Below, piece after piece: positions 13,240-61,118 of a DNA stretch of 64,000 nt; the stretch's first letter is position 1; the number at the start of each line of letters is the position of its first letter. Made by a program: the position numbers and the translations under genes. Source of the stretch: an uncultured Gammaproteobacteria bacterium (GTDB taxonomy: Bacteria; Pseudomonadota; Gammaproteobacteria; DRLM01); NCBI GenBank assembly GCA_963729605.1, contig CAVSNY010000003.1, forward strand, positions 128,001-192,000. The letters are read 5' to 3'. Under the pieces are notes generated by a model. The model was not told the origin of the DNA and did no database searches. It saw only the letters and a list, made by a program, of their open reading frames with translations.

Positions 13240-14603
13240 TGGCCGGGTATCAGCCTTATCCTGAGTACAAGGGGTCGGGGGTGGAGTGGTTGGGGGAGGT
13301 GCCGAAGAATTGGGAGCCAAAGCGCCTCCGCTTTGCATTAAGAACAAACCCGAGCAGCAAAGAAATTAAGCTGGCCCCGGAAGATTCGGTTTCTTTCGTG
13401 GGGATGGACGCGGTTGGTGAATACGGCGGATTGCGCTTGGACTCTGAAAAAGAGCTTTCCGAAGTTGGTTCAGGTTACACATTCTTCGCAAACAATGATG
13501 TTGTTGTTGCCAAAATCACGCCCTGTTTCGAAAACGGTAAAGGTGCAATCGCCGAGAACCTAACCAATGGGGTAGCTTTCGGTACAACCGAGTTACATGT
13601 TCTGAGAACAGGTTTGGAGTTAGATCCAGAGTTTTTATTTTACATCACGATATCAAATTTATTTCGCAGCCTCGGTGAATCCGAGATGTGCGGTGCAGGT
13701 GGTCAAAAGCGTGTCCCAGAATCGTTTATCAAGGATTTTGTTGCGGCATTGCCCAGTTTGCCAGAACAACAAACCATCGCCCGCTTTCTCGACCACAAAA
13801 CCGCGCAGATCGATGCGCTCATCGCCAAAAAACAAACCCTGCTGGAAAAACTCGCCGAAAAACGCACCGCCCTCATCAGCCACGCCGTCACCAAAGGCCT
13901 CGATCCGAATGTAAAAATGAAAGACTCCGGCGTGGAGTGGTTGGGGCAGGTGCCGGAGCATTGGGATGTTAAGCGCCTCAAATTTTTGGTCTCTTCTCCA
14001 CTCAAGTATGGCGCAAACGAGACGGCGGAATTAACGGATACAGAATTTCCGCGTTATATTCGCATAACTGACGTGAATGATGACGGCTCATTAAGAGAAG
14101 AAACGTTTCGCTCACTCCCTCCCGAAGTGGCAGCAGATTACCTGCTAGAAGATGGTGACATTCTTCTGGCTCGAAGTGGTGCCACTGTCGGCAAGAGCTT
14201 TATATACCGTCCTTCGTGGGGCGCTGCTGCATATGCGGGTTACCTTATTCGTGCCAGAATGTCCGAGGAGTTAGATGCTGACCTTTGTTTCTATTTCCTG
14301 CAATCGGATATTTATTGGCAATGGCTAAATAGCATATTTATTCAGGCAACCATCCAGAACGTGAGCGCAGAAAAATATGCAAATCTATGGTTACCGGTTC
14401 CATGCAAGGCTGAACAAGGCCCGATTATTGATTATTTAAATACGCAAGTTGGAAGAATAAAAATGCAGGCGTCGAAGGCAGCTGATGCCATCGAAAAACT
14501 CAAAGAATACCGCTCCGCGCTGATCACCCAGGCAGTCACCGGCAAAATCGACGTGCGCATTGTCAAGATTCCAGAGTCAGCCGCCAAAGGTCAGGCGGCA
14601 TGA
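13239..14603 (+). CDS. hsdS: Type I R-M specificity subunit S
   Basis: TGATG-coupled to hsdM; duplicated conserved SGVEWLG(E/Q)VP blocks flanking two lower-GC TRDs; ends ITQAVTGKIDV. Confidence 0.95.
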   Translation: MAGYQPYPEYKGSGVEWLGEVPKNWEPKRLRFALRTNPSSKEIKLAPEDSVSFVGMDAVGEYGGLRLDSEKELSEVGSGYTFFANNDVVVAKITPCFENGKGAIAENLTNGVAFGTTELHVLRTGLELDPEFLFYITISNLFRSLGESEMCGAGGQKRVPESFIKDFVAALPSLPEQQTIARFLDHKTAQIDALIAKKQTLLEKLAEKRTALISHAVTKGLDPNVKMKDSGVEWLGQVPEHWDVKRLKFLVSSPLKYGANETAELTDTEFPRYIRITDVNDDGSLREETFRSLPPEVAADYLLEDGDILLARSGATVGKSFIYRPSWGAAAYAGYLIRARMSEELDADLCFYFLQSDIYWQWLNSIFIQATIQNVSAEKYANLWLPVPCKAEQGPIIDYLNTQVGRIKMQASKAADAIEKLKEYRSALITQAVTGKIDVRIVKIPESAAKGQAA

Positions 14604-51654: not shown

Positions 51655-52218
51655 ATGACTCAGGATCCGTTGAATCTCATCTGGATCGACCTGGAAATGA
51701 CGGGGCTCGATACCAACCGCGATTATATCATCGAGATCGCCACCGTCATCACCGATAGCGCGCTCAATATACTGGCGGAGGGCCCGGTGCTGGCGATCCA
51801 TCAGTCCGACGAGACGTTGAACGCCATGGACAATTGGAATCAAAACCAGCATGGCAAATCGGGGCTGATCGACCGGGTGCGCGCCAGCCGGGTGAGCGCG
51901 GCGGACGCCGAGCGGCAGACCTTGGAATTCGTCCGGCAGTATGTGCCGTCGCGCGGCTCGCCGATGTGCGGCAACAGCATCTGCCAGGACCGGCGTTTTC
52001 TTGCCCGCTGCATGCCGGCCTTGGAGGCCTATTTTCACTATCGCAATCTCGACGTGAGCACGGTGAAGGAATTGGCGCGGCGCTGGGCGCCGGCGGTCTA
52101 CGGCGGTTTTACCAAGGAGAGCAGTCATCTGGCCCTCGAGGATATTCGCGATTCGATCAACGAGCTGAGATATTACCGCGAGAGTTTTTTCCGTCTGCCG
52201 GGCGGCCCGTCAGTATAG
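51655..52218 (+). CDS. orn: Oligoribonuclease
   Basis: [29 protein letters not shown]. Confidence 0.97.
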
Positions 52219-53685
52219 GCGGTAGGAGACCGGCAGGCGGACCGAGATCTGGACGTCCGGCGCGTCCTCGGTGATTCCCGCGCCGAGCGACACCGAGAAG
52301 CTGCTGCTTTTACCGACCCGATGCGATGCGCCGAATAACAAGCTGCCGATTTGCAGCGTCTGCGAGCCGGGTATGTTTTCGCCGTTCCGAGTGGTTTTGC
52401 CTACGCTGCTATGGCTATAGCCGAGGCTGAAGGACGCGTTTTGATTGATGGCGAAACCCATGCCGAAACTGAGACCGAACGCGTCGCCGGGATCGATGTT
52501 GCCGGTCTGGGCGTTGACGTCGCGCTCCAGATTCCACAGATAGCTGACATTGCCGAAGAACACCGCCGGGTCGGAAGGCAGGCTGATGGTTAAACTCGGT
52601 TGTATGCCCCAGAAGCCCGAGCCCGTCGGCAGGCTGGTTTGCAAGCCGGTGGCGGGGTCGGTCTTGATTTCGAACGGATCGCTGCCGGTGGTGGATTTTA
52701 CGCGAAGGTTGGCGAGGTAATAGGCCCGGCCCGGTCCGCCGCGGTTGATTTGATAATGCAGACCTAGTTCCGCGTCGCCCAGCCCGTCGCCTTCCACGTT
52801 TACCGTTTCATCTCGATCGGACGGCGAGGCCAGCGGCCGGGTCACGGTGGTATCGCTGCGTGAGACGTAGGGCACGCGGAATTCCATTTCGAAACGGTTG
52901 GTCAGCCCGTAACGAAGGCCCAGTGCGGCATTGACGGTGTTTCTGTTGACCGCGCGCACGTCGATCGCGCCGATGGTGATGGAGGGAATGACGGTGAAAC
53001 CTTCCAGCGCCACCCGCGTCACGCTCGAGTGGGTGTATTGCAGGGACGGTTCCACCACCAAAGTTCCCTGCGGTGTGAGTATGCCGTGTTGCTCGAGAAT
53101 GTCCGCGACCTGTTTCTGGCGGGTCTTTTCCTCGGGAGGCGCTTGCCCCACCGGCTCGCTGGGCGCTTCCTCGCGGGACACCGCCGGCTTGGGTGGCTGC
53201 GGCGGCGGGGCGGGCGGAGGCGCGGCGGGTTGAGGGGCAGGCTGCGGCGCGGGCGCCGGAATGGGCGCTGGAATGGGCGGCGTCGCGGCGGGTTCCGTCG
53301 GCGCGGGGATGGGCGCGATGGGCGGTTGCGCCAGTTCTTCGATCTGCAGGCGCAAACTGTCTAGGCGATTCTTTTGCTCTTCATAAATGCGCTGTTGTTC
53401 TTGAATCTGCTCGGATTGTCTTTGCAGCTTCTGTTGCTGTTCCAGCATGCGCTTCTGCTGCTCTTCCAATGCACGCTCAACGGTCTTCTCTTTTTCGGCC
53501 AACCGTTTTCTCTCGAGGTTGAATTTCTCGATTTCCTCCAGTAATTGCTCGGGAGAACTGGCCGGTGGCAGGGCGTTACCCTCTTGCGCGAAACCGGCCG
53601 ATGTGTCCGTCAACGCCCAGATTAAAAATAAAAACGGTAGCGCCTTGTCGCAGGCGCTACCACGGGTTGAGGGATTTTTTCGCAC
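52210..53685 (-). CDS. FapF-like outer-membrane beta-barrel channel with N-terminal coiled coil and Pro linker
   Basis: Signal peptide, Q/E/K heptads, Pro-rich spacer, then [37 protein letters not shown] and an aromatic C-terminus. Confidence 0.8.
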
Positions 53686-53713: not shown

Positions 53714-54130
53714 TTAGCGCTTGGTGATGGCTTCATTGCCGCTGCGTCCACCGAAGCGGCCGCGGATTTCCTCATAACGTTGGCGTTGTTCGGCATAAGC
53801 GCGTTTTTGCTCGGAAAGCTGCCGCTCGAAATCCTCCAATGAACGCCGTTGAGTGTCCAGCGTGCGCTCGTGATCGACCAGGTAGGTGGCCAGCTGCTTT
53901 TCGCGCTCGTCGAGCTTTTTCCGTTCGGCGGCGAGGGCTTCGAGTTCTTCTTGAAGCGACCGTTGTTTCACGAACAATTCGCCGGTCTGCTCGGTGATGG
54001 CCTGATTTAATTTCTTTAATGCATCCGGCGAGGTTTCCGTTCCTGCATCGGCGGCGTGGACGGGATTGAGCGTCCATGCGGCGGTCAGCAACAACACGGC
54101 GGTCATATTAATACGTAAATAATTATTCAT
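53714..54130 (-). CDS. Secreted coiled-coil protein resembling the N-terminal coil of the adjacent channel
   Basis: GAGGAG RBS, signal peptide ending VHA, continuous heptads. Confidence 0.7.
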   Translation of the reverse strand: MNNYLRINMTAVLLLTAAWTLNPVHAADAGTETSPDALKKLNQAITEQTGELFVKQRSLQEELEALAAERKKLDEREKQLATYLVDHERTLDTQRRSLEDFERQLSEQKRAYAEQRQRYEEIRGRFGGRSGNEAITKR

Positions 54131-54199
54131 ACCATTCTCCTCAACGATGCGAAGCACTACGAATGTATGGTTGGGCACCACAATTCGCTGATTTTAACT

Positions 54200-54733
54200 T
54201 TAAAACAATGAATTCAATAATTGATCGTTTATTGTATGTCCCAACGAGCCAAAGGGCGTGGTCGGTAAATTTTTAATGTCGATGTTGAGCACAGTTAAAT
54301 TATGCAGCGTCTGATGGTCAAGGCTGTTTTGCAGTAAGGTTAAATATCCCGCGACCGGTAATGAAAGTGCCGGGGCGGGAGCCAGGTTTCCTTCACCGGA
54401 TTGGATTATCCTTATCGGTTGAATGTCGCTGACGAGCTTGGCGGCATTACGGTGATCGAGCCGGGAGATATCCAGCGCAAGTTTGGTTTGCAGTATGCCG
54501 TTTATGAAGGCGGCTTGCTCATAACCTATGGTGATTTCAATGCCATCGGCGGTCATGAAACCGCCGCGCAAACCGGCCATTTCTTCCTGGCTGAGCGGCA
54601 TGAATTCGGTAAGCGGGTCGCCGAGTAAGGTTCCGGCGCGCGCCGTATTCAGGGTCATGGCCAGGGGTATGGCAATAAACACCAAGCTGAGCAGGCGGAC
54701 AAAGACCGAAGTTGGGTGCATTTTAAAACTCAT
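54200..54733 (-). CDS. FapE-like secreted accessory protein
   Basis: Signal peptide, PLSQEEMAGLRGGF, IQSGEGN, LQNSLDHQ; follows the C39 peptidase. Confidence 0.68.
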   Translation of the reverse strand: MSFKMHPTSVFVRLLSLVFIAIPLAMTLNTARAGTLLGDPLTEFMPLSQEEMAGLRGGFMTADGIEITIGYEQAAFINGILQTKLALDISRLDHRNAAKLVSDIQPIRIIQSGEGNLAPAPALSLPVAGYLTLLQNSLDHQTLHNLTVLNIDIKNLPTTPFGSLGHTINDQLLNSLF

Positions 54734-55451
54734 TTGCCCCCCTGAAGAATAAGGTCATGTCGGCAAGCATATTGCGATCGACCGCCATATCTATCGGCGC
54801 GCCGGTGGCCGCGTACCATTCTTCGCGGCCATTGAAATATTTGACGGCGATGTTGCGCTTGGAACGGACCAAGAACACGATGCCATTCCATATATTCTTG
54901 AACTCGGTGCGGGGAATTAATTTTATGCCCCGGGAAGGATCGCCAACCAATATATGTTGATCATTGATGCCTTTTATGACGACGAAATGATTGTAGCCGT
55001 CGCTGTTGATAAGGACGATGGCGGGGACGCCGATCCCTGATAATTTTTCGAGGGGCAGACGAAAACCGTCCGCTCGATAGCCGTTGGCCTCCAGATAATT
55101 TTTCATATCCAGCAGTGAGAAACCTTCTTTTTTGATTTTTTCTTTGTTTCCACTGTTATACATGGATAAAAAAACATCCCGTTCCGAAACGGGATGTTCG
55201 TAATGGTAAGTAAGCAATGTCGCAAGCGCGGCGGAACCGCAGCTGAAATCGTATTTCTGTTTAATGGTTTTAAGAAAAGAACGTTCTTGAAAGCTCTTGA
55301 CCGGCAAGGTTAGCGAGGCTTCGGAAGAACGCAGTATGACTTCGCCCGCATGAAGCGGCTTTATCAATAAGACCAACGCCAATCCCACAATAATAAACGA
55401 TACCATTGGAAAGATGGCGCGTTTCGAGGATGTTGCGGGTCCGGTCATCAC
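54723..55451 (-). CDS. Stand-alone exported C39 peptidase, FapD-like
   Basis: Signal/TM segment, QKYDFSCGSAAL, GFSLLDMK, YNHFVV, GDP. Confidence 0.92.
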   Translation of the reverse strand: MMTGPATSSKRAIFPMVSFIIVGLALVLLIKPLHAGEVILRSSEASLTLPVKSFQERSFLKTIKQKYDFSCGSAALATLLTYHYEHPVSERDVFLSMYNSGNKEKIKKEGFSLLDMKNYLEANGYRADGFRLPLEKLSGIGVPAIVLINSDGYNHFVVIKGINDQHILVGDPSRGIKLIPRTEFKNIWNGIVFLVRSKRNIAVKYFNGREEWYAATGAPIDMAVDRNMLADMTLFFRGANEF

Positions 55452-55828
55452 TGTTGTTTCTCGAGCGTCAGGTTGACGATGGTGGAATTTTGAATGATCA
55501 CATGATTTCCAGAATTCTGAATAACGGTGGCAAAGCCGCTGCTGTTGCTGAATGAATCATTGCTTACCGTATTGTTGCCGTTAGTGGTGCCGGTGACGAT
55601 GTTGCCGCTCATTTTGGCATTCATTTCTGAATCGTTGATGGTAAACCATTCAGTTACGCCTTGGGCGCGTTCGCCGTCCAGTTCATGCGAAGTTAATTTG
55701 TCTTGACTATCCAGCGTTGAATCCACTTCTCCGAGGTCACCCGCCTTGCTTGGCATGCAGAATGCGGCGGCCGCCAGGCTGAGCAGCAGGGGATGGACAA
55801 AACTATTGGTTCTAGCCTTCTTTGGCAT
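55448..55828 (-). CDS. Small secreted Asn-rich subunit (FapB-like minor subunit or nucleator)
   Basis: Signal peptide; C-terminal SFSNSSGFATVIQNSGNHVIIQN repeat resembles that of the upstream large protein. Confidence 0.7.
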   Translation of the reverse strand: MPKKARTNSFVHPLLLSLAAAAFCMPSKAGDLGEVDSTLDSQDKLTSHELDGERAQGVTEWFTINDSEMNAKMSGNIVTGTTNGNNTVSNDSFSNSSGFATVIQNSGNHVIIQNSTIVNLTLEKQQ

Positions 55829-55855
55829 TGTTATATCCCGATATGTAAGTCCGTT

Positions 55856-55897
55856 TTAAAAGTGCCTGTGGACGGCGTACCACGCCGCCCACAGGCA
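55856..55897 (-). terminator. Strong hairpin or partial terminator after the major subunit gene
   Basis: TGCCTGTGGGCGGCGT-GGT-ACGCCGTCCACAGGCA followed by CTTTT on the minus strand. Confidence 0.65.
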
Positions 55898-55915
55898 GAC
55901 CCCAATCAATATTGC

Positions 55916-58006
55916 TTATTGACCATTCACGTTCGCTTGAATCGTGAAGTTTTGTTGGATTTCACTATTGGCACCGCTGTTCTGAGCGACTTGAGAAATG
56001 CCATTCACATTCGAGAATGATCCGTTGTCGATCGTATTGCTGGTGTTCGCTGTGTAGTCTCCGTTACCCATGGTTACGCTATTGTTGGACACAGTAGCAG
56101 CAAGCGTACTCTGAGCAACCGCGATATCCATATCGGAGATATTGATCTCCGTGCTGCTGTCGCTGTTGTTGGAGTCGTTGGTGCTGTTGTTGTTATTGGA
56201 GTCGGCGACGTTAGTGCTGTTGTCGCTGTTATCACTGTTGTCACTGTTGTCGCTGTTGTCGTTATTGGAATCCGCGGTGTTGATGCTGTTGTCGTTATTG
56301 GAATCCGCGGTGTTGATGCTGTTGTCGTTATTGGAATCCGCGGTGTTGATGCTGTTGTCGTTGTTGGAATCCGCGGTGTTGGTGTTGGTGCTGTTGTTTG
56401 AGTTGTCCGAGTTGTCGCTCAGATCATTCCCATTTCCGGAATCAGTGACCAAGATGCCACTGTTGCCAGAATTGCCGTTGGTGCTGTTGTTGCTGTTATC
56501 GTTATTGGAGTCAGCGGTGTTGATGCTGTTGTCGTTATTGGAGTCAGCGGTATTGTTGGAATTAGTCGTATTGTTGGAATCAGCGGTGTTAGTGCTGTTA
56601 TCGGAATTGTCCGAGTTGTCGCTCAGATCATTCCCATTTCCAGAATCCGTGACCAGAATGCCGCTGTTGCCAGAATTGCCATTGGTGCTGTTGTCGTTGT
56701 TGGAATCAGCGGTATTGTTGGAATTAGTCGTATTGTTGGAATCAGCGGTGTTAGTGCTGTTGTCGGAATTGTCCGAGTTGTCGCTCAGATCATTCCCATT
56801 TCCAGAATCAGTGACCAAGATTCCGCTGTTGCCAGAATTACCGTCGGTGCTGTTATCGTTATTGGAGTCAGCGACGTTAGTGCTGTTGTCGCTGTTGTCA
56901 CTGTTGTCGTTATTGGAGTCCGCGGTGTTGGTGCTGGAATCGTTGTTGGAATCGGCGGTGTTGATGCTGTTGTCAGAGTTATCCGAATTGTCGCTGTTGT
57001 CGGAATTATCGCTCAGGTCGTTACCGTTGCCGGAATCCGTGACCAAGATACCGCTGTTGTTGGCATTGCCGTCAGCCGCGACGCTGTTGTCACTATTGTT
57101 GGAGTTGTCGCTGTTGTCGTTGTTGGAATCGGCGGTGTTGATGCTGTTGTCCGAGTTGTCCGAGTTATCCGAATTGTCGCTGTTGTCGGAATTATCGCTC
57201 AGGTCGTTGCCGTTGCCGGAATCCGTGACCAAGATACCGCTGTTGTTGGCATTGCCGTCAGCCGCGACGCTGTTGTCGCTGTTGTCGTTGTTGGAGTCCG
57301 CGGTGTTGGTGCTGGAATCGTTGTTGGAATCTGCTGTGTTAGTGCTGTTGTCCGAGTTATTCGAATTGTCGCTGTTGTCGGAATTGTCTCTCAGGTCGTT
57401 GCCGTTGCCGGAATCCGTGATCAAGATGCCGCTGTTGCCGGCATTGCCGTCGGCCGCGATGCTGTTGTCGCTGTTGTCGTTGTTGGAGTCCGCGGTGTTG
57501 GTGCTGGAATCGTTGTTGGAATCTGCGGTGTTGGTGCTGTTATTGGTGTTGTCGGTGCTGTTGTCGGAGTTGTCGGAGTTGTTTGAATTGTCGCTCAGGT
57601 CGTTGCCGTTACCGGAATCCGTGACCAAGATGCCGCTGTTACCGGCATTGCCGTCGGCCGCGATGCTGTTGTCGCTGTTGTCGTTGTTGGAGTCCGCGGT
57701 GTTGGTGCTGGAATCGTTGTTGGAATCTGCTGTGTTGGTGCTGTTGTTGGTGTTGTCGGTGCTGTTGTCATTATTGCTGTTGGCAGTGCTGTTATCGCTG
57801 TTATCCGAGCTATTTGAATTGTCTGAATTATTGGAGTTGTCTGAATTGTCGCTCAAGTCGTTGCCGTTGCCGGAATCATTAACGCTTACCGCGACGGAAT
57901 TATCGTTGGCGGACGAGGCGCCGTTATTGGATGTGGAGTCCGCCCAGGCCGGTGCAGAAAGGCCTAAGGCGAAGGTTACTGCTACAACTATAAGTTTCTT
58001 GTCCAT
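55916..58006 (-). CDS. Large secreted Asn/Ser/Asp-repeat protein; putative major fibre subunit of the Fap-like operon
   Basis: AGGAG RBS, signal peptide ending AWA, 8 DSGNGNDL blocks, (DNS)n and NTADSNNDNS repeats, C-terminal SFSNVNGISQVAQNSGANSEIQQN. Confidence 0.82.
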   Translation of the reverse strand: MDKKLIVVAVTFALGLSAPAWADSTSNNGASSANDNSVAVSVNDSGNGNDLSDNSDNSNNSDNSNSSDNSDNSTANSNNDNSTDNTNNSTNTADSNNDSSTNTADSNNDNSDNSIAADGNAGNSGILVTDSGNGNDLSDNSNNSDNSDNSTDNTNNSTNTADSNNDSSTNTADSNNDNSDNSIAADGNAGNSGILITDSGNGNDLRDNSDNSDNSNNSDNSTNTADSNNDSSTNTADSNNDNSDNSVAADGNANNSGILVTDSGNGNDLSDNSDNSDNSDNSDNSDNSINTADSNNDNSDNSNNSDNSVAADGNANNSGILVTDSGNGNDLSDNSDNSDNSDNSDNSINTADSNNDSSTNTADSNNDNSDNSDNSTNVADSNNDNSTDGNSGNSGILVTDSGNGNDLSDNSDNSDNSTNTADSNNTTNSNNTADSNNDNSTNGNSGNSGILVTDSGNGNDLSDNSDNSDNSTNTADSNNTTNSNNTADSNNDNSINTADSNNDNSNNSTNGNSGNSGILVTDSGNGNDLSDNSDNSNNSTNTNTADSNNDNSINTADSNNDNSINTADSNNDNSINTADSNNDNSDNSDNSDNSDNSTNVADSNNNNSTNDSNNSDSSTEINISDMDIAVAQSTLAATVSNNSVTMGNGDYTANTSNTIDNGSFSNVNGISQVAQNSGANSEIQQNFTIQANVNGQ

Positions 58007-58124
58007 GATGCTCTCCTGAGTTGTTATCATTGCGTCCGCAATCGATTTCGTTGCGAGCGATTACTAGCAGTCGGGCGTCTTTTACGGCATAACCCCCCTA
58101 TCGCGCGTGCGATAGTGTGCGCGG

Positions 58125-58140
58125 TGCAATTCATACGCCA
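58125..58140 (-). promoter_or_regulatory. Sigma54 -24/-12 promoter
   Basis: TGGCGT-ATGAA-TTGCA with canonical GG-N10-GC spacing, ~120 bp upstream of the start codon and preceded by AT-rich DNA. Confidence 0.75.
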
Positions 58141-58517
58141 TCTTTAATAGTTTTCTGTAAGCTTATGAATGAGTAATTCTTTGAGGTGTTGATTTGTGCG
58201 ATCATTCACGGGTATTGAAAAGAATCTCGACGATCAAGACGGATTGAAGCGTAGGGGTTTCTACTCATTCTCATTTTTTACTTAATTAGCAAGACGTTGA
58301 ATTGATGTGGCTTATATGTCTTCAAGCGAGCTTATGATGTTGTAAATATTTTCGACATGACGTAGACCGTCCCTGAAAACCCGCCATATCAGCCGAGGTG
58401 TTTTAAGTCATTCAAATTTATTTTTTAATTTTTGAAAATGAACGGGGCAATTATCGTATTGCCCGTTTAAGCGACTAATGAGCTTTCCTGTGTCCTCAAG
58501 AGAATGTCTCTCAACAG

Positions 58518-59605
58518 TTAAATATGTTGTTCGAGCGCCCACATCACGTGTTCGCGCACGAGTTGGGAAGGATGGGAGAGACGTTGCCGCAGGGCGTGGA
58601 CGAGGTTTTCGCTGGTGGGGGCATTGCCCAGGGCCACGGCGATATTGCGCAGCCAGCTCAGGTGGCCGATGCGGCGGATGGCGCTGCCTTCGGTACGTTT
58701 GAGGAATTCTTCTTCAGTCCATGCGAATAAATCGATAAGGCTTGGTGCGTCGAGTTGGTGGCGGGTGAGAAAGTCGTCTTCGGCGCTCAGCCGCGCGAAG
58801 CGGTTCCATGGGCAGACCAATTGGCAATCGTCGCAACCGTAGATGCGGTTGCCGAGCATGGCGCGGAATTCCACGGGGATGCTGCCGCGCAATTCAATGG
58901 TGAGATACGAGATGCAGCGGCGGGCATCGAGCTGGTAGGGGCCGATGATGGCCGGGTCGGGCAGATGTCGATACAGGCGCGGCAGGTGCCGCAGTGGTTG
59001 ACGCCGGTGCGTCGACCGGCAGCGGCAGGTCGGTGTAGATCTCGCCGAGGAAAAACCAGGAGCCGGCGCCGCGGTTGATGCAGATTGGTATGTTTGCCGA
59101 TCCAGCCCAGCCCCGCCTTCTCGGCGATGGCCTTTTCCAGGACCGGCGCGCTATCGACGAAGACCCGATAACCGAACGGCACCGATCGCCGCTGCGATTT
59201 TGCGTCGCCAGTTGTTGCAGCCGCTGCCGCAGCACTTTGTGATAGTCGCGCCCGAGGGCGTAGCGCGAGACGTAGCCCAGGTGCGGGTCGCGCCAGCACG
59301 TCGTCCGGCTGGCGTGCTGTCGGGAGGCAGATAGTCCATTCGCGCGGAGATGACCCGCAAGGTATTCTCGGCACCAGTTCGGCGGGGCGGCTGCGTTTAC
59401 TGCCGTGCCGGGCCATGTAGTCCATTTCGCCGTGGTGACCGGCCGCCAGCCAGGTTTGCAGATGGGCCTCGTGGTCGTCGAGTTCGGTGTCGGTGATGCC
59501 GAGTTGCTGAAAGCCGAGTTCCTCGCCCCAGCGTTTGATGTCGGCGGCGAGTTGCGCCCAATCGGCGGGTGATGTTGGTGTGGTGCTCTGTCGCGGGTCT
59601 GGCAT
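58518..59605 (-). pseudogene. queG: Epoxyqueuosine reductase QueG with several frameshifts (likely sequence errors)
   Basis: Fragments in three frames: GFQQLGITD, RVISARMDY, YRVFVDSAPVLEK, AGSWFFLGEIYTD, CGTCRACIDICPT, RIYGCDDCQLVCPWN. Confidence 0.9.
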
Positions 59606-59624
59606 AGCCGTTATGATAGCCGCC

Positions 59625-61118
59625 ATGCGAGATTTACCCCAGGCCCTTTATACCGCGCAGGCCGTGCGCGAACTCGATCGCCTCGCGATCGAGCAATACG
59701 GCATTGCCGGTTTGACGTTGATGACCCGCGCCGGCGAGGCGGTGTTCCGCGAACTGCGCCGGTGTTGGCCGCGGGCGCGGCGGGTGGCGGTGGTGTGCGG
59801 CGCGGGCAATAACGGCGGCGACGGTTTCGTGGTGGCGCGACTGATTTACGAGGCGGGTCTGTCGGTGACGGTGAGTTTGCTGGGCGACGCGGCGCAACTT
59901 AAAGGCGACGCGCGCCTGGCCTATGAAGCCATGACCGCGGCGGGTTTGAACGCCGAGCTATTTTCAGCGGAGTCTCTGCGCCAGGCCGACGTGGTGGTGG
60001 ATGCGTTGTTCGGCACCGGTTTGGACCGCGAGCCGCGCGGCCTTTATCTCGAGGCGATCACCGCCATCAATAACAGCGCTGTGCCGGTGATCGCGGTGGA
60101 CATCCCCTCCGGCTTGCACGCGAATACCGGCGCGGTGTTGGGCGCGGCGGTGCAGGCTCGCGTTACCGTGAGTTTTATCGGGCTCAAGCAGGGTTTGTTC
60201 ACCGGTGAGGGGCCCGCGCGATGCGGTGAGATCGTCTTTGACGATTTAGCGATATCGCCGGAAGCTTACAACCACATAGCGCCCACCGCTTTGCTCACTA
60301 ATGATGATGAACTGGCGGCCCGCCTGCCGCGCCGTGACCGCACCGCGCACAAAGGCCGTCACGGCCATGTGTTGATCGTCGGCGGCGATGCCGGCATGGC
60401 GGGCGCGGCGCGGATGGCGGCGCAGGCGGCGGCGCGGGTCGGCGCCGGCCTGGTCAGCATCGCCACCCATCCTCGACATGCCGCGTTTTGCGCGACCGTC
60501 CAACCGGAGATCATGTGTCACGCCGTGGCGGACGGCCATGACTTGCGGCCGTTATTGCAGCGCGCCGGTGTGGTGGCGGTGGGGCCGGGTTTGGGCACCG
60601 CCGCCTGGGGCAAGGGATTGTTCGACACGGTGCTCGATAGTGGTTTGCCGTTGGTGGTGGACGCCGACGCCTTGAACCTCTTGGCTCAAGATCCCGCGCG
60701 GCGGAAAAACTGGGTATTGACGCCCCATCCCGGCGAGGCGGCCCGTTTATTGGAAATGAGCGTGGCCGAAATCCAGTCGGATCGGTTTACTGCCGTGCGC
60801 GCATTGGCCGCGCGTTATGACGGCGTGGCGGTATTGAAAGGCGCGGGCAGTTTGATCGCCGGCACCACCGGGCCGGTGGCGGTGTGCGCCGCGGGCAATC
60901 CTGGCATGGCGACGGGCGGCATGGGCGATGTGCTCACCGGCGTGATCGCCGGACTCGTCGCGCAAGGGCTGGGTTTGCCGGAGGCGGCGCGGCTGGGTGT
61001 GCATCTCCATGCCCGCGCCGGTGATGCCGCCGCCCGCGGCGGCGAGCGCGGCATGCTGGCGACGGATCTGTTGCCGGAACTGCGTTACTGGGTGAACCCG
61101 GATTTATGGAACGGCTGA
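59625..61118 (+). CDS. nnr: Bifunctional NAD(P)HX epimerase/dehydratase
   Basis: GAGNNGGDG, DALFGTG, DIPSG, TPHPGEA, MATGGMGDVLTG. Confidence 0.95.
   Translation: MRDLPQALYTAQAVRELDRLAIEQYGIAGLTLMTRAGEAVFRELRRCWPRARRVAVVCGAGNNGGDGFVVARLIYEAGLSVTVSLLGDAAQLKGDARLAYEAMTAAGLNAELFSAESLRQADVVVDALFGTGLDREPRGLYLEAITAINNSAVPVIAVDIPSGLHANTGAVLGAAVQARVTVSFIGLKQGLFTGEGPARCGEIVFDDLAISPEAYNHIAPTALLTNDDELAARLPRRDRTAHKGRHGHVLIVGGDAGMAGAARMAAQAAARVGAGLVSIATHPRHAAFCATVQPEIMCHAVADGHDLRPLLQRAGVVAVGPGLGTAAWGKGLFDTVLDSGLPLVVDADALNLLAQDPARRKNWVLTPHPGEAARLLEMSVAEIQSDRFTAVRALAARYDGVAVLKGAGSLIAGTTGPVAVCAAGNPGMATGGMGDVLTGVIAGLVAQGLGLPEAARLGVHLHARAGDAAARGGERGMLATDLLPELRYWVNPDLWNG

Follow-up and report, generated by a model that had tools for sequence, protein, structure and literature searches.

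A secreted Asn/Ser/Asp repeat protein with one Fap-type repeat, encoded in a putative sister branch of the Pseudomonas Fap fibre system

What is the role of a secreted protein made mostly of Asn, Ser and Asp, and how would it be held at the cell surface? The question is raised by a gene, hereafter BIG, of an uncultured Gammaproteobacteria bacterium, located on the minus strand at 55916..58006 of the window, i.e. the 64,000-nucleotide (nt) stretch of contig CAVSNY010000003.1 that was analysed. The initial annotation had described its product as a hierarchical repeat protein of 696 amino acids (aa), forming either an Asn-ladder beta-solenoid or a disordered acidic brush displayed on a fibre. Fap and curli are the two model systems of bacterial functional amyloid. 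We found BIG to be gene 1 of a six-gene same-strand operon lying between orn and a broken queG; it is a real gene, coding for a secreted and extremely acidic Asn/Ser/Asp repeat protein with one amyloid-type repeat at its end. With moderate confidence, we read BIG as a structural subunit of an extracellular fibre system, in which a disordered polyanionic brush would be held on a cross-beta fibre by the single repeat. From the earlier description the observations stood, as did the fibre and brush reading, and the solenoid found no support. The starting points are the anatomy of the sequence, the homology of neighbouring genes to FapD, FapE and FapF, a repeat common to BIG and the next gene, the pairing of a big with a small gene and the lack of predicted structure in the repeats; from these we infer the export route, the incorporation into a fibre and the role as a brush.

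Read from its first ATG, at 58030, the open reading frame (ORF) of BIG covers 55916..58030 and 704 aa. An AGGAGA motif at 58012-58017 precedes the ATG at 58006 with a spacer of 5 nt, whereas the ATG at 58030 has no such site. The 55916-58006 model of 696 aa was therefore preferred, in agreement with the initial annotation and with the orthologue starts (MDKK, MKKK or MNKT). The product begins with a Sec signal peptide, MDKKLIVVAVTFALGLSAPAWA (57941..58006, minus), read from the translation and probably cleaved after AWA; the peptide and its AWA(N/D) site align in 19 orthologues. Asn, Ser and Asp account for 28.6 %, 20.6 % and 15.9 % of the 704-aa ORF, and the net charge of the 696-aa protein is -111. 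Counted over the 674 residues following AWA, the mature protein contains a single Arg and lacks Lys, His, Cys, Trp and Pro altogether, as had been claimed. A Leu/Ser-rich ORF of 625 aa overlies the array on the plus strand (56142..58019). It is an antisense shadow of the array; ribosome-binding site, signal peptide, a conserved C-terminal domain and the direction of the operon all belong to the minus strand.

The repeat region (56153..57877, minus; about 575 residues) comprises eight blocks of 54-97 aa, each starting with DSGNGNDL, continuing with DNS triplets and x-NTADSNNDNS units and ending with NSGIL(V/I)T. The eight anchors had been given as (SGILVT)DSGNGNDL. Eight copies of DSGNGNDL were indeed found, seven of them after SGIL[V/I]T, but the first is preceded by SVAVSVN. 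Similarly, both smaller units are present, with 57 DNS triplets and 12 exact NTADSNNDNS, but the supposed decamer is part of a tandem period of 33 nt, corresponding to the 11-mer x-NTADSNNDNS. The hierarchy itself is real, because Tandem Repeats Finder detected nested periods of 9, 18, 33, 162-204 and 378 nt in the array, with scores up to 1253. The synonymous differences previously noticed between repeats could be counted: the seven SGIL anchors (24 codons, 21 pairs, 504 comparisons) exhibit 169 synonymous versus 40 non-synonymous differences, and DNS is encoded by 12 different 9-mers. Because the anchor differences are mostly synonymous, the array is old enough for silent sites to have diverged while the peptide was kept, and the synonymous excess indicates purifying selection on the anchors.

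Known repeat classes were compared with this array. RTX Ca2+-binding repeats consist of tandem GGxGxDxUx nonapeptides; in BIG, SGNGNDLS resembles one such nonapeptide but occurs once per block, never in tandem, and gave no Pfam match. Ice-nucleation proteins carry tandem 16-aa repeats derived from an octapeptide, as against periods of 3 and 11 aa in BIG. At E 0.1, Pfam gave 0 families for BIG and for SMALL, and so no curlin repeats of the CsgA/CsgB type either. A PglB-type glycosylation sequon (D/E-x-N-x-S/T) was also considered for the DNS repeats and dropped on reading, as their Asp occupies position -1, where the sequon requires -2.

The 78 C-terminal residues of BIG (55919..56152, minus) hold its only Fap-type repeat (..LAATVSNNSV..NTIDNGSFSNVNGISQVAQNSGANSEIQQNFTIQANV). 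The next gene, hereafter SMALL (55448..55828, minus), encodes a small subunit of 126 aa with one Fap-type repeat, GFATVIQNSGNHVIIQNSTIVNL, and the motif common to both C-termini reads NTIDNGSFSNVNGISQVAQNSGANSEIQQNFTI in BIG and NTVSNDSFSNSSGFATVIQNSGNHVIIQNSTI in SMALL. BLASTP aligned the BIG C-terminus with SMALL at 58 % identity over 33 aa (E 8e-4), and hhalign matched the two family alignments with a probability of 90 % and E 1.4e-6. The C-terminal Fap-like repeat of the initial annotation is thus corroborated. A profile built from 18 orthologous C-termini scored 99.3 bits on BIG residues 619-703 and negative on every internal block, from which exactly one Fap-type repeat is detectable in BIG. 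The eight anchors were tried as degenerate Fap-type repeats, HMMER setting NSIAADGNAGNSGIL under NtIdggsFanvsGI, but the internal domains score negative and the idea was rejected. In the genome of the source organism the repeat is carried only by BIG and SMALL. Towards canonical FapB, whose alignment, like that of FapC, was built from 10-11 further canonical operons, hhalign gave 63 % and E 7e-5 with SMALL, and 40 % and E 3e-4 between the BIG C-terminus and FapB repeat 3. SMALL and FapC were aligned at E 0.009, on their signal peptides only.

Three further genes of the operon resemble genes of the Pseudomonas Fap system. A periplasmic C39 cysteine peptidase (54723..55451, minus; PF03412, E 1.3e-22) is FapD-like, scoring 149 bits with the FapD model NF058616 (cut-off 330) and 109 bits with FilB; its signal peptide, the Cys of SCGSAA and the His of GYNHF were read from the translation. 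The following gene (54200..54733, minus) codes for a 177-aa protein, hereafter P177, which appears to be a shorter and distant homologue of FapE: hhalign of 13 P177-family proteins against 14 FapE gave 95.9 % and E 5e-9. The last gene (52210..53685, minus) encodes a FapF-like outer-membrane channel of 491 aa, composed of a coiled coil, a Pro-rich linker and a beta-barrel, and matching NF058560 with 149.5 bits over positions 23-418 of 420 (cut-off 700), and FilC with 49 bits. The FapA models NF058556 and NF058617 matched none of the six operon proteins.

Double-glycine leaders follow the consensus LSxxELxxIxGG. Past the signal peptide of P177, LSQEEMAGLRGG fits this consensus at every fixed position, and the SMALL family presents, also past the signal peptide, the consensus LSxxELxxxRGxG. 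Since they carry a near-canonical leader, P177 and SMALL are the more likely substrates of the C39 peptidase. The leader of the FapE-like protein bears on an open question, as the available sections of Rouse et al. 2017 (PMC5557850) give the target of FapD as unknown and the Fap proteins as devoid of canonical C39 sites. On the strength of these motifs, the branch to which BIG, SMALL and P177 belong may reveal the substrates of FapD-type peptidases.

The same architecture was followed over 19 distinct SMALL-bearing loci, namely the source window, six loci from the genome search and twelve from named records (L and G numbers designate loci and genomes). L054 and L055 duplicate other loci, and L067 and L068 are identical, each pair being counted once; L043, L045, L046 and L048, where the rest of the operon converges on the FapF-like gene, were left out of the counts. 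At all 19 loci, an ORF with a signal peptide, a low-complexity body and a terminal repeat stands directly upstream of SMALL; 15 came from BLAST searches using BIG or its C-terminus, and the other four (L008, L044, L063 and L065) from reading the ORF. The signal peptides are closely similar (MNKTLL..AIALALG.S..AWANP.N), the lengths range from about 244 to 706 aa, and four loci have two tandem BIG copies. Intact orthologues of about 697 aa in another genus (L006) and of about 706 aa and DNS type (L065) have the same architecture as BIG.

The body of these proteins depends on the lineage. It is of the acidic DNS type at 8 of the 19 loci (the source, its two closest relatives, L056, two Marinobacter, Aquisalimonas and L065), N/S/T-rich at two, Ala/Thr/Ser-rich in Methylococcales and in one deltaproteobacterial metagenome-assembled genome, and Gly-rich (27-32 % Gly) in Luteibacter, G027, L060 and L061. 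As the net charge across the family runs from 0 to -160, the polyanionic chemistry belongs to some lineages and not to the whole family. In DNS forms the low-complexity part lies ahead of the whole repeat; in Gly-rich forms it sits inside the repeat, between ..L.G.VS....GN.. and ..N.M....AAGI...AQNSG.ASLIQQ... Repeat numbers, whose comparison across orthologues had been proposed, proved variable: BIG has eight anchors, its close relative L006 four, and L056 none in its readable part. Counterparts of the anchors in the same register include ..NSGNSGVLATRGASVDQS.. (L049 and L052) and (I/F)x(I/K)xDSGNDNSDNS, the latter seen in both Marinobacter and Aquisalimonas.

Searches beyond these loci showed that the SMALL family is not rare. 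A full HMMER scan with SMALL recovered 1403 representative clusters at E 0.001 or better, of which 1005 at 1e-10 or better, and among those listed with names none goes beyond 'hypothetical protein'. A word-based search with SMALL found 22 relatives, all unnamed or 'hypothetical', whereas the word-based homologue search with BIG residues 615-704, in proteins of 387-1232 aa, found none at E 0.001 or better among 160 candidates. The SMALL family occurs in 5 of 41 relatives' genomes, and in 3 of 11 within the source's own family. BIG belongs to a sizeable branch that has no Pfam or NCBIfam model. At L051 (G257; 13258-13971, minus), beside a low-scoring FapF-like gene, lies a protein of 237 aa in which the BIG-type repeat (..DNTIKDNAFQQAEGITQVQQNNGSNNAMQQG..) is present in full at least four times and which matched no NCBIfam model. 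It could be a multi-repeat relative from which the single-repeat BIG proteins derive.

The transporters set this branch apart from canonical Fap. The FapF model was searched in 400 genomes of the class with a threshold of E 1e-10 or better (G258 was not scored), and matched in 42 of them, a tally that includes four genomes flagged as unpublished (G050, G151, G305 and G317), on which no other part of the analysis draws. The scores are bimodal, 18 places having 295-766 bits and 15, with the source's, 118-171 bits, with none between. SMALL genes go with the low-scoring set. In a maximum-likelihood tree of 36 transporters, the two sets are parted by one long branch with an SH-like approximate likelihood ratio test (SH-aLRT) value of 99; this tree is a quick one (the careful search is unfinished), its groups were set by score and L041 has a long branch. 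Judged from these sequences, the operon would be an undescribed sister branch of the Pseudomonas Fap amyloid-fibre system, no description of the branch or of its DNS-type proteins having been found in the literature searched, which was limited in scope. We filed it as a variant of the Fap kind, expected to work as Fap does but outside Fap membership, because the FapB, FapC and FapE models miss it, FapA is absent, each subunit brings a single repeat and the transporter belongs to another group. On contig C11 of G027, a canonical fapABCDEF operon (L076) and a BIG-type system (L008) were observed about 90 kb apart.

The structure of BIG was predicted with AlphaFold2. With the full protein and 8 orthologues, the mean predicted local distance difference test (pLDDT) was 36.5; the repeats ranged from 28 to 39 (about 33 overall) without any secondary structure, and values of 50-59 were confined to the C-terminal domain, which showed two strands. 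The shallow alignment of 8 sequences limits the weight of this result on the repeats. The disordered acidic brush agrees with such a prediction, and so does a disordered region joined to a repeat that would fold only on assembly; in the excerpted part of PMC12459412, FapC monomers are likewise reported as unfolded until assembly. A complex prediction with two copies of SMALL (residues 30-126) and the BIG C-terminal domain gave a score of 0.02 and a mark of 0.32, and speaks neither for nor against binding.

We propose the following course. The Sec signal peptide would take BIG to the periplasm, where the N/S/D region, being nearly free of hydrophobic residues and carrying a net charge near -110, should remain soluble and without a fold. 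Still unfolded, BIG would then pass out of the cell by way of the trimeric FapF-like barrel; the C39 peptidase, which is FapD-like, and P177, which is FapE-like, would act as their counterparts do in Fap. Outside, the single C-terminal repeat would add as one cross-beta layer to a fibre, or dock on it, this fibre being built mainly with SMALL, the carrier of the homologous repeat. The N/S/D region would project as a hydrated polyanionic brush and set the surface chemistry of the fibre, i.e. its charge, hydration and condensation of counter-ions (Ca2+, Mg2+ or Fe). Display on a fibre through the C-terminal repeat, the wording of the initial annotation, remains the best reading to be drawn from the common repeat and the FapD/E/F-like operon.

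Several results weigh against it. BIG, SMALL and P177 match nothing in Pfam, nor in NCBIfam even at E 10. The NCBIfam misses are informative because its FapA, FapB, FapC and FapE models recognise a canonical control operon (G387, L042); among them, the FapC (NF058558) and FapB (NF058557) models gave no match at E 10 with BIG, its last 90 aa or SMALL, nor did NCBIfam including FapE (NF058559) with P177. The BIG C-terminus has no significant alignment with FapC (E 0.07). A PDB sequence search with its 90 last residues returned chance-level matches only (E 0.37 or worse), with no FapC or CsgA entry, and a search with the SMALL profile found no relevant solved structure (E 0.37 or worse). Modelled alone with 40 sequences, the C-terminal domain reached a pLDDT of 55, with one low-confidence hairpin over GISQVAQNS and EIQQNFTIQ. 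The repeat is Fap-like in pattern and context, and on sequence its homology to the Fap repeats is weakly supported. On physical grounds, a stack of BIG alone, in register, would be unfavourable, as it would bring in about 110 negative charges every 4.8 Å. For the model to hold, BIG would have to be diluted through co-polymerisation with SMALL or have its charge neutralised, for instance by cations, and we expect one or the other. Cation binding by a chain with about 110 carboxylates seems physically almost unavoidable, and as a selected function it is conjectural. Given the family's range of net charge, it is not the common function, and the uncharged Gly-rich orthologues argue that this common role is structural.

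Other explanations account for part of the data. BIG could be a secreted soluble cargo, exported by the C39/FapF-type module and staying outside any fibre as a free or loosely bound polyanionic matrix polymer, its repeat or conserved N-terminus serving as export or recognition signal. Export of non-fibre cargo by a FapF/C39 pair has a precedent in the Neisseria nap island where, according to the available passages of PMC11798529, the NapP (C39) and NapF (FapF homologue) module handles double-glycine peptides; P177 and SMALL carry a comparable LSxxE(L/M)xxxRG(G) motif, and the BIG monomer is predicted unfolded. The nap cargo is described there as peptides under 10 kDa promoting autolysis, in contrast to the repeat-bearing fibre-type proteins found here. 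We regard a soluble cargo as rather unlikely, since a repeat kept in two adjacent genes at 19 of 19 loci fits co-assembly better than a signal, shows the N/Q/G-rich strand-turn-strand pattern of Fap repeats and, in Gly-rich orthologues, encloses the low-complexity part, which would be odd for a terminal export tag. A polyprotein, cut by the C39 peptidase at its anchors (at small-residue pairs such as G-N, or at RGA, RGG or KGG in orthologues) into acidic peptides of about 60-90 aa, is suggested by the peptidase gene lying two genes downstream of BIG and by the anchors ATRGA, ARGG and TKGG of L049, L052 and L044, which resemble C39 GG/GA sites as given in sections of PMC5557850. This seems very improbable: where these motifs align, the anchors of BIG show neither GG nor GA nor GS, and they lack a leader of the LSxxELxxIxGG type, such leaders being found in P177 and the SMALL family.

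The folded beta-solenoid deserves the same scrutiny. Asn-rich blocks would stack, one block per turn or layer, with the SGILVT-DSGNGNDL anchors as core strands, and BIG would be a rigid fibre, a stalk or an ice- or mineral-templating surface. Block lengths of 54-97 aa are near the 62-72 aa per layer of the FapC fibril reported in part of PMC12459412, and the anchors are the best conserved elements, under purifying selection and in the same register in distant orthologues (..NSGVLATRGASVDQS in L049 and L052). AlphaFold2 predicted no strand in the whole region, albeit from 8 sequences, and block length varies almost two-fold. Each block has only one short hydrophobic stretch, and about 16 % Asp is left uncompensated. 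L056 has no DSGN anchor in its readable part, other orthologues are Gly-rich or Ala/Thr-rich instead, and the C-terminal repeat profile is negative on every internal block. The Asn ladder of the initial annotation thus finds no support, and we consider a solenoid improbable. The remaining concern is an artefact, either a mis-assembled copy number or a non-functional ORF. Related short-read contigs do break here, L007 ending inside the array and L056 containing a run of N, and the adjacent queG is broken. The architecture recurs in the L006 and L065 orthologues, synonymous changes dominate, and ribosome-binding site, signal peptide, conserved C-terminal domain and operon setting are all in place, so that we attach hardly any probability to this explanation.

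The preferred reading of BIG as a fibre subunit can be extended, tentatively, to a 'bottle-brush' functional amyloid. Its subunits would each bring a single repeat, and BIG would add an exchangeable hypervariable cassette, acidic (DNS)n, Gly-rich or Ala/Thr-rich. In the DNS lineages, that of the source included, the fibre would be a cation-condensing polyelectrolyte, with about 110 carboxylates per subunit, that could bind Ca or Fe or organise minerals at the cell surface, and the leaders on the FapE-like and small subunits would designate the long-sought substrates of FapD-type peptidases. We consider this a possibility worth stating and a doubtful one. In this branch each subunit is left with a single copy of the fibre repeat, and a lineage-specific low-complexity cassette takes up most of the large one; if the model is true, it would offer a natural amyloid scaffold with a modular surface, whose DNS form would rank among the most acidic bacterial surface proteins.

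Compared with FapC and FapB of the Pseudomonas fapABCDEF operon, BIG has in common a Sec signal peptide, an N/Q/G-rich repeat and a monomer that is unfolded, here by prediction; the operons have in common a periplasmic C39 peptidase (FapD), a FapE-like protein and a FapF-type channel. BIG differs by having one repeat instead of three and a low-complexity part of about 575 aa. The operon has no fapA, places the big gene before the small one and includes an extra coiled-coil gene. Its FapD and FapF counterparts score far below the NCBIfam cut-offs, the channel falling in a group apart from canonical FapF. The repeat reads G(I/F)xxVxQNSGxNxxIQQN, as against the GNxGNx2AGx2NQQxN found in sections of PMC5557850. 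As far as the available parts of PMC3792158 (Dueholm et al. 2013) go, Fap orthologues differ in size mainly through a hypervariable, exposed region outside the repeats, as they do here; the linkers of FapC are widely variable and considered to lie exposed on the fibril, the FapB of Vibrio has a single repeat, and some Fap variants lack fapA. The Vibrio and Acidithiobacillus variants have, in the same source, no fapA, a FapB with one or two repeats and a large repeat-expanded partner, and differ from the present system in that the large protein has 4-16 full Fap repeats, whereas BIG has one full repeat and a low-complexity expansion, a comparison made on the text description.

The SD-repeat stalks of the staphylococcal Sdr and Clf adhesins suggest that a long, acidic, low-complexity stretch of Asp and Ser could serve as an extended spacer on a surface structure, but they are Gram-positive, LPXTG-anchored and made of dipeptide repeats with folded ligand-binding domains, none of which is found in BIG. 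Dentin phosphophoryn, (DSS)n, is likewise an Asp/Ser-rich polyanion of period 3. It has no homology to BIG, and its function depends on Ser phosphorylation, while the BIG operon contains no kinase or modification gene; the analogy is compositional only, as was originally stated. In public annotation, a Marinobacter relative (P0172) and a Protein Atlas cluster are named 'dentin sialophosphoprotein', a name which we read as following composition and not homology. The nearest Protein Atlas clusters to BIG are unnamed or 'putative Dentin sialophosphoprotein' and have no Pfam family, and were taken as a lead only.

Between the BIG stop and the SMALL start, a GC-rich hairpin with a 15-bp stem is followed by ACUUUU (55864..55896, minus). 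The fold of 55829-55918 has an energy of -36.5 kcal/mol and a z-score of -4.5, 0 of 200 shuffles being as stable. Four of five orthologous spacers have a hairpin at the same place (L006 7820-7893, L007 9302-9370, L052 3417-3487 and L056 3133-3234), and that of L049, of 29 nt, has none. The orthologous hairpins differ in sequence and keep their position, one of them with a U-tract. Hairpins after major-subunit genes are common in fibre operons. This one is possibly an attenuator or attenuating terminator, or a 3' stabiliser, raising BIG over the downstream genes, and BIG probably yields more transcript than any other gene of the operon. Upstream of BIG, the AT-rich non-coding stretch at 58007-58517 is unusually long (about 510 nt); a simple sigma-70 scan of both its strands gave no promoter match.

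The fifth gene of the operon (53714..54181, minus) encodes a 155-aa protein with weak coiled-coil-type matches in Pfam and NCBIfam. It aligns over 65 aa with residues 48-112 of the FapF-like channel (35 % identity, E 2.8e-8), looks like a stand-alone paralogue and might join or compete with the periplasmic coiled coil of the channel. This gene was met only in the closest relatives of the source and in L056. Beyond the other end of the operon, queG (epoxyqueuosine reductase; 58518-59626, minus) is broken, the ORF list showing its pieces in three ORFs. When compared with an intact QueG of 364 aa (L006 4153-5247), it shows homology in two different reading frames, which denotes either a pseudogene or local indel errors. 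The neighbouring nnr, tsaE and amiB are intact, as are all genes of the fibre operon.

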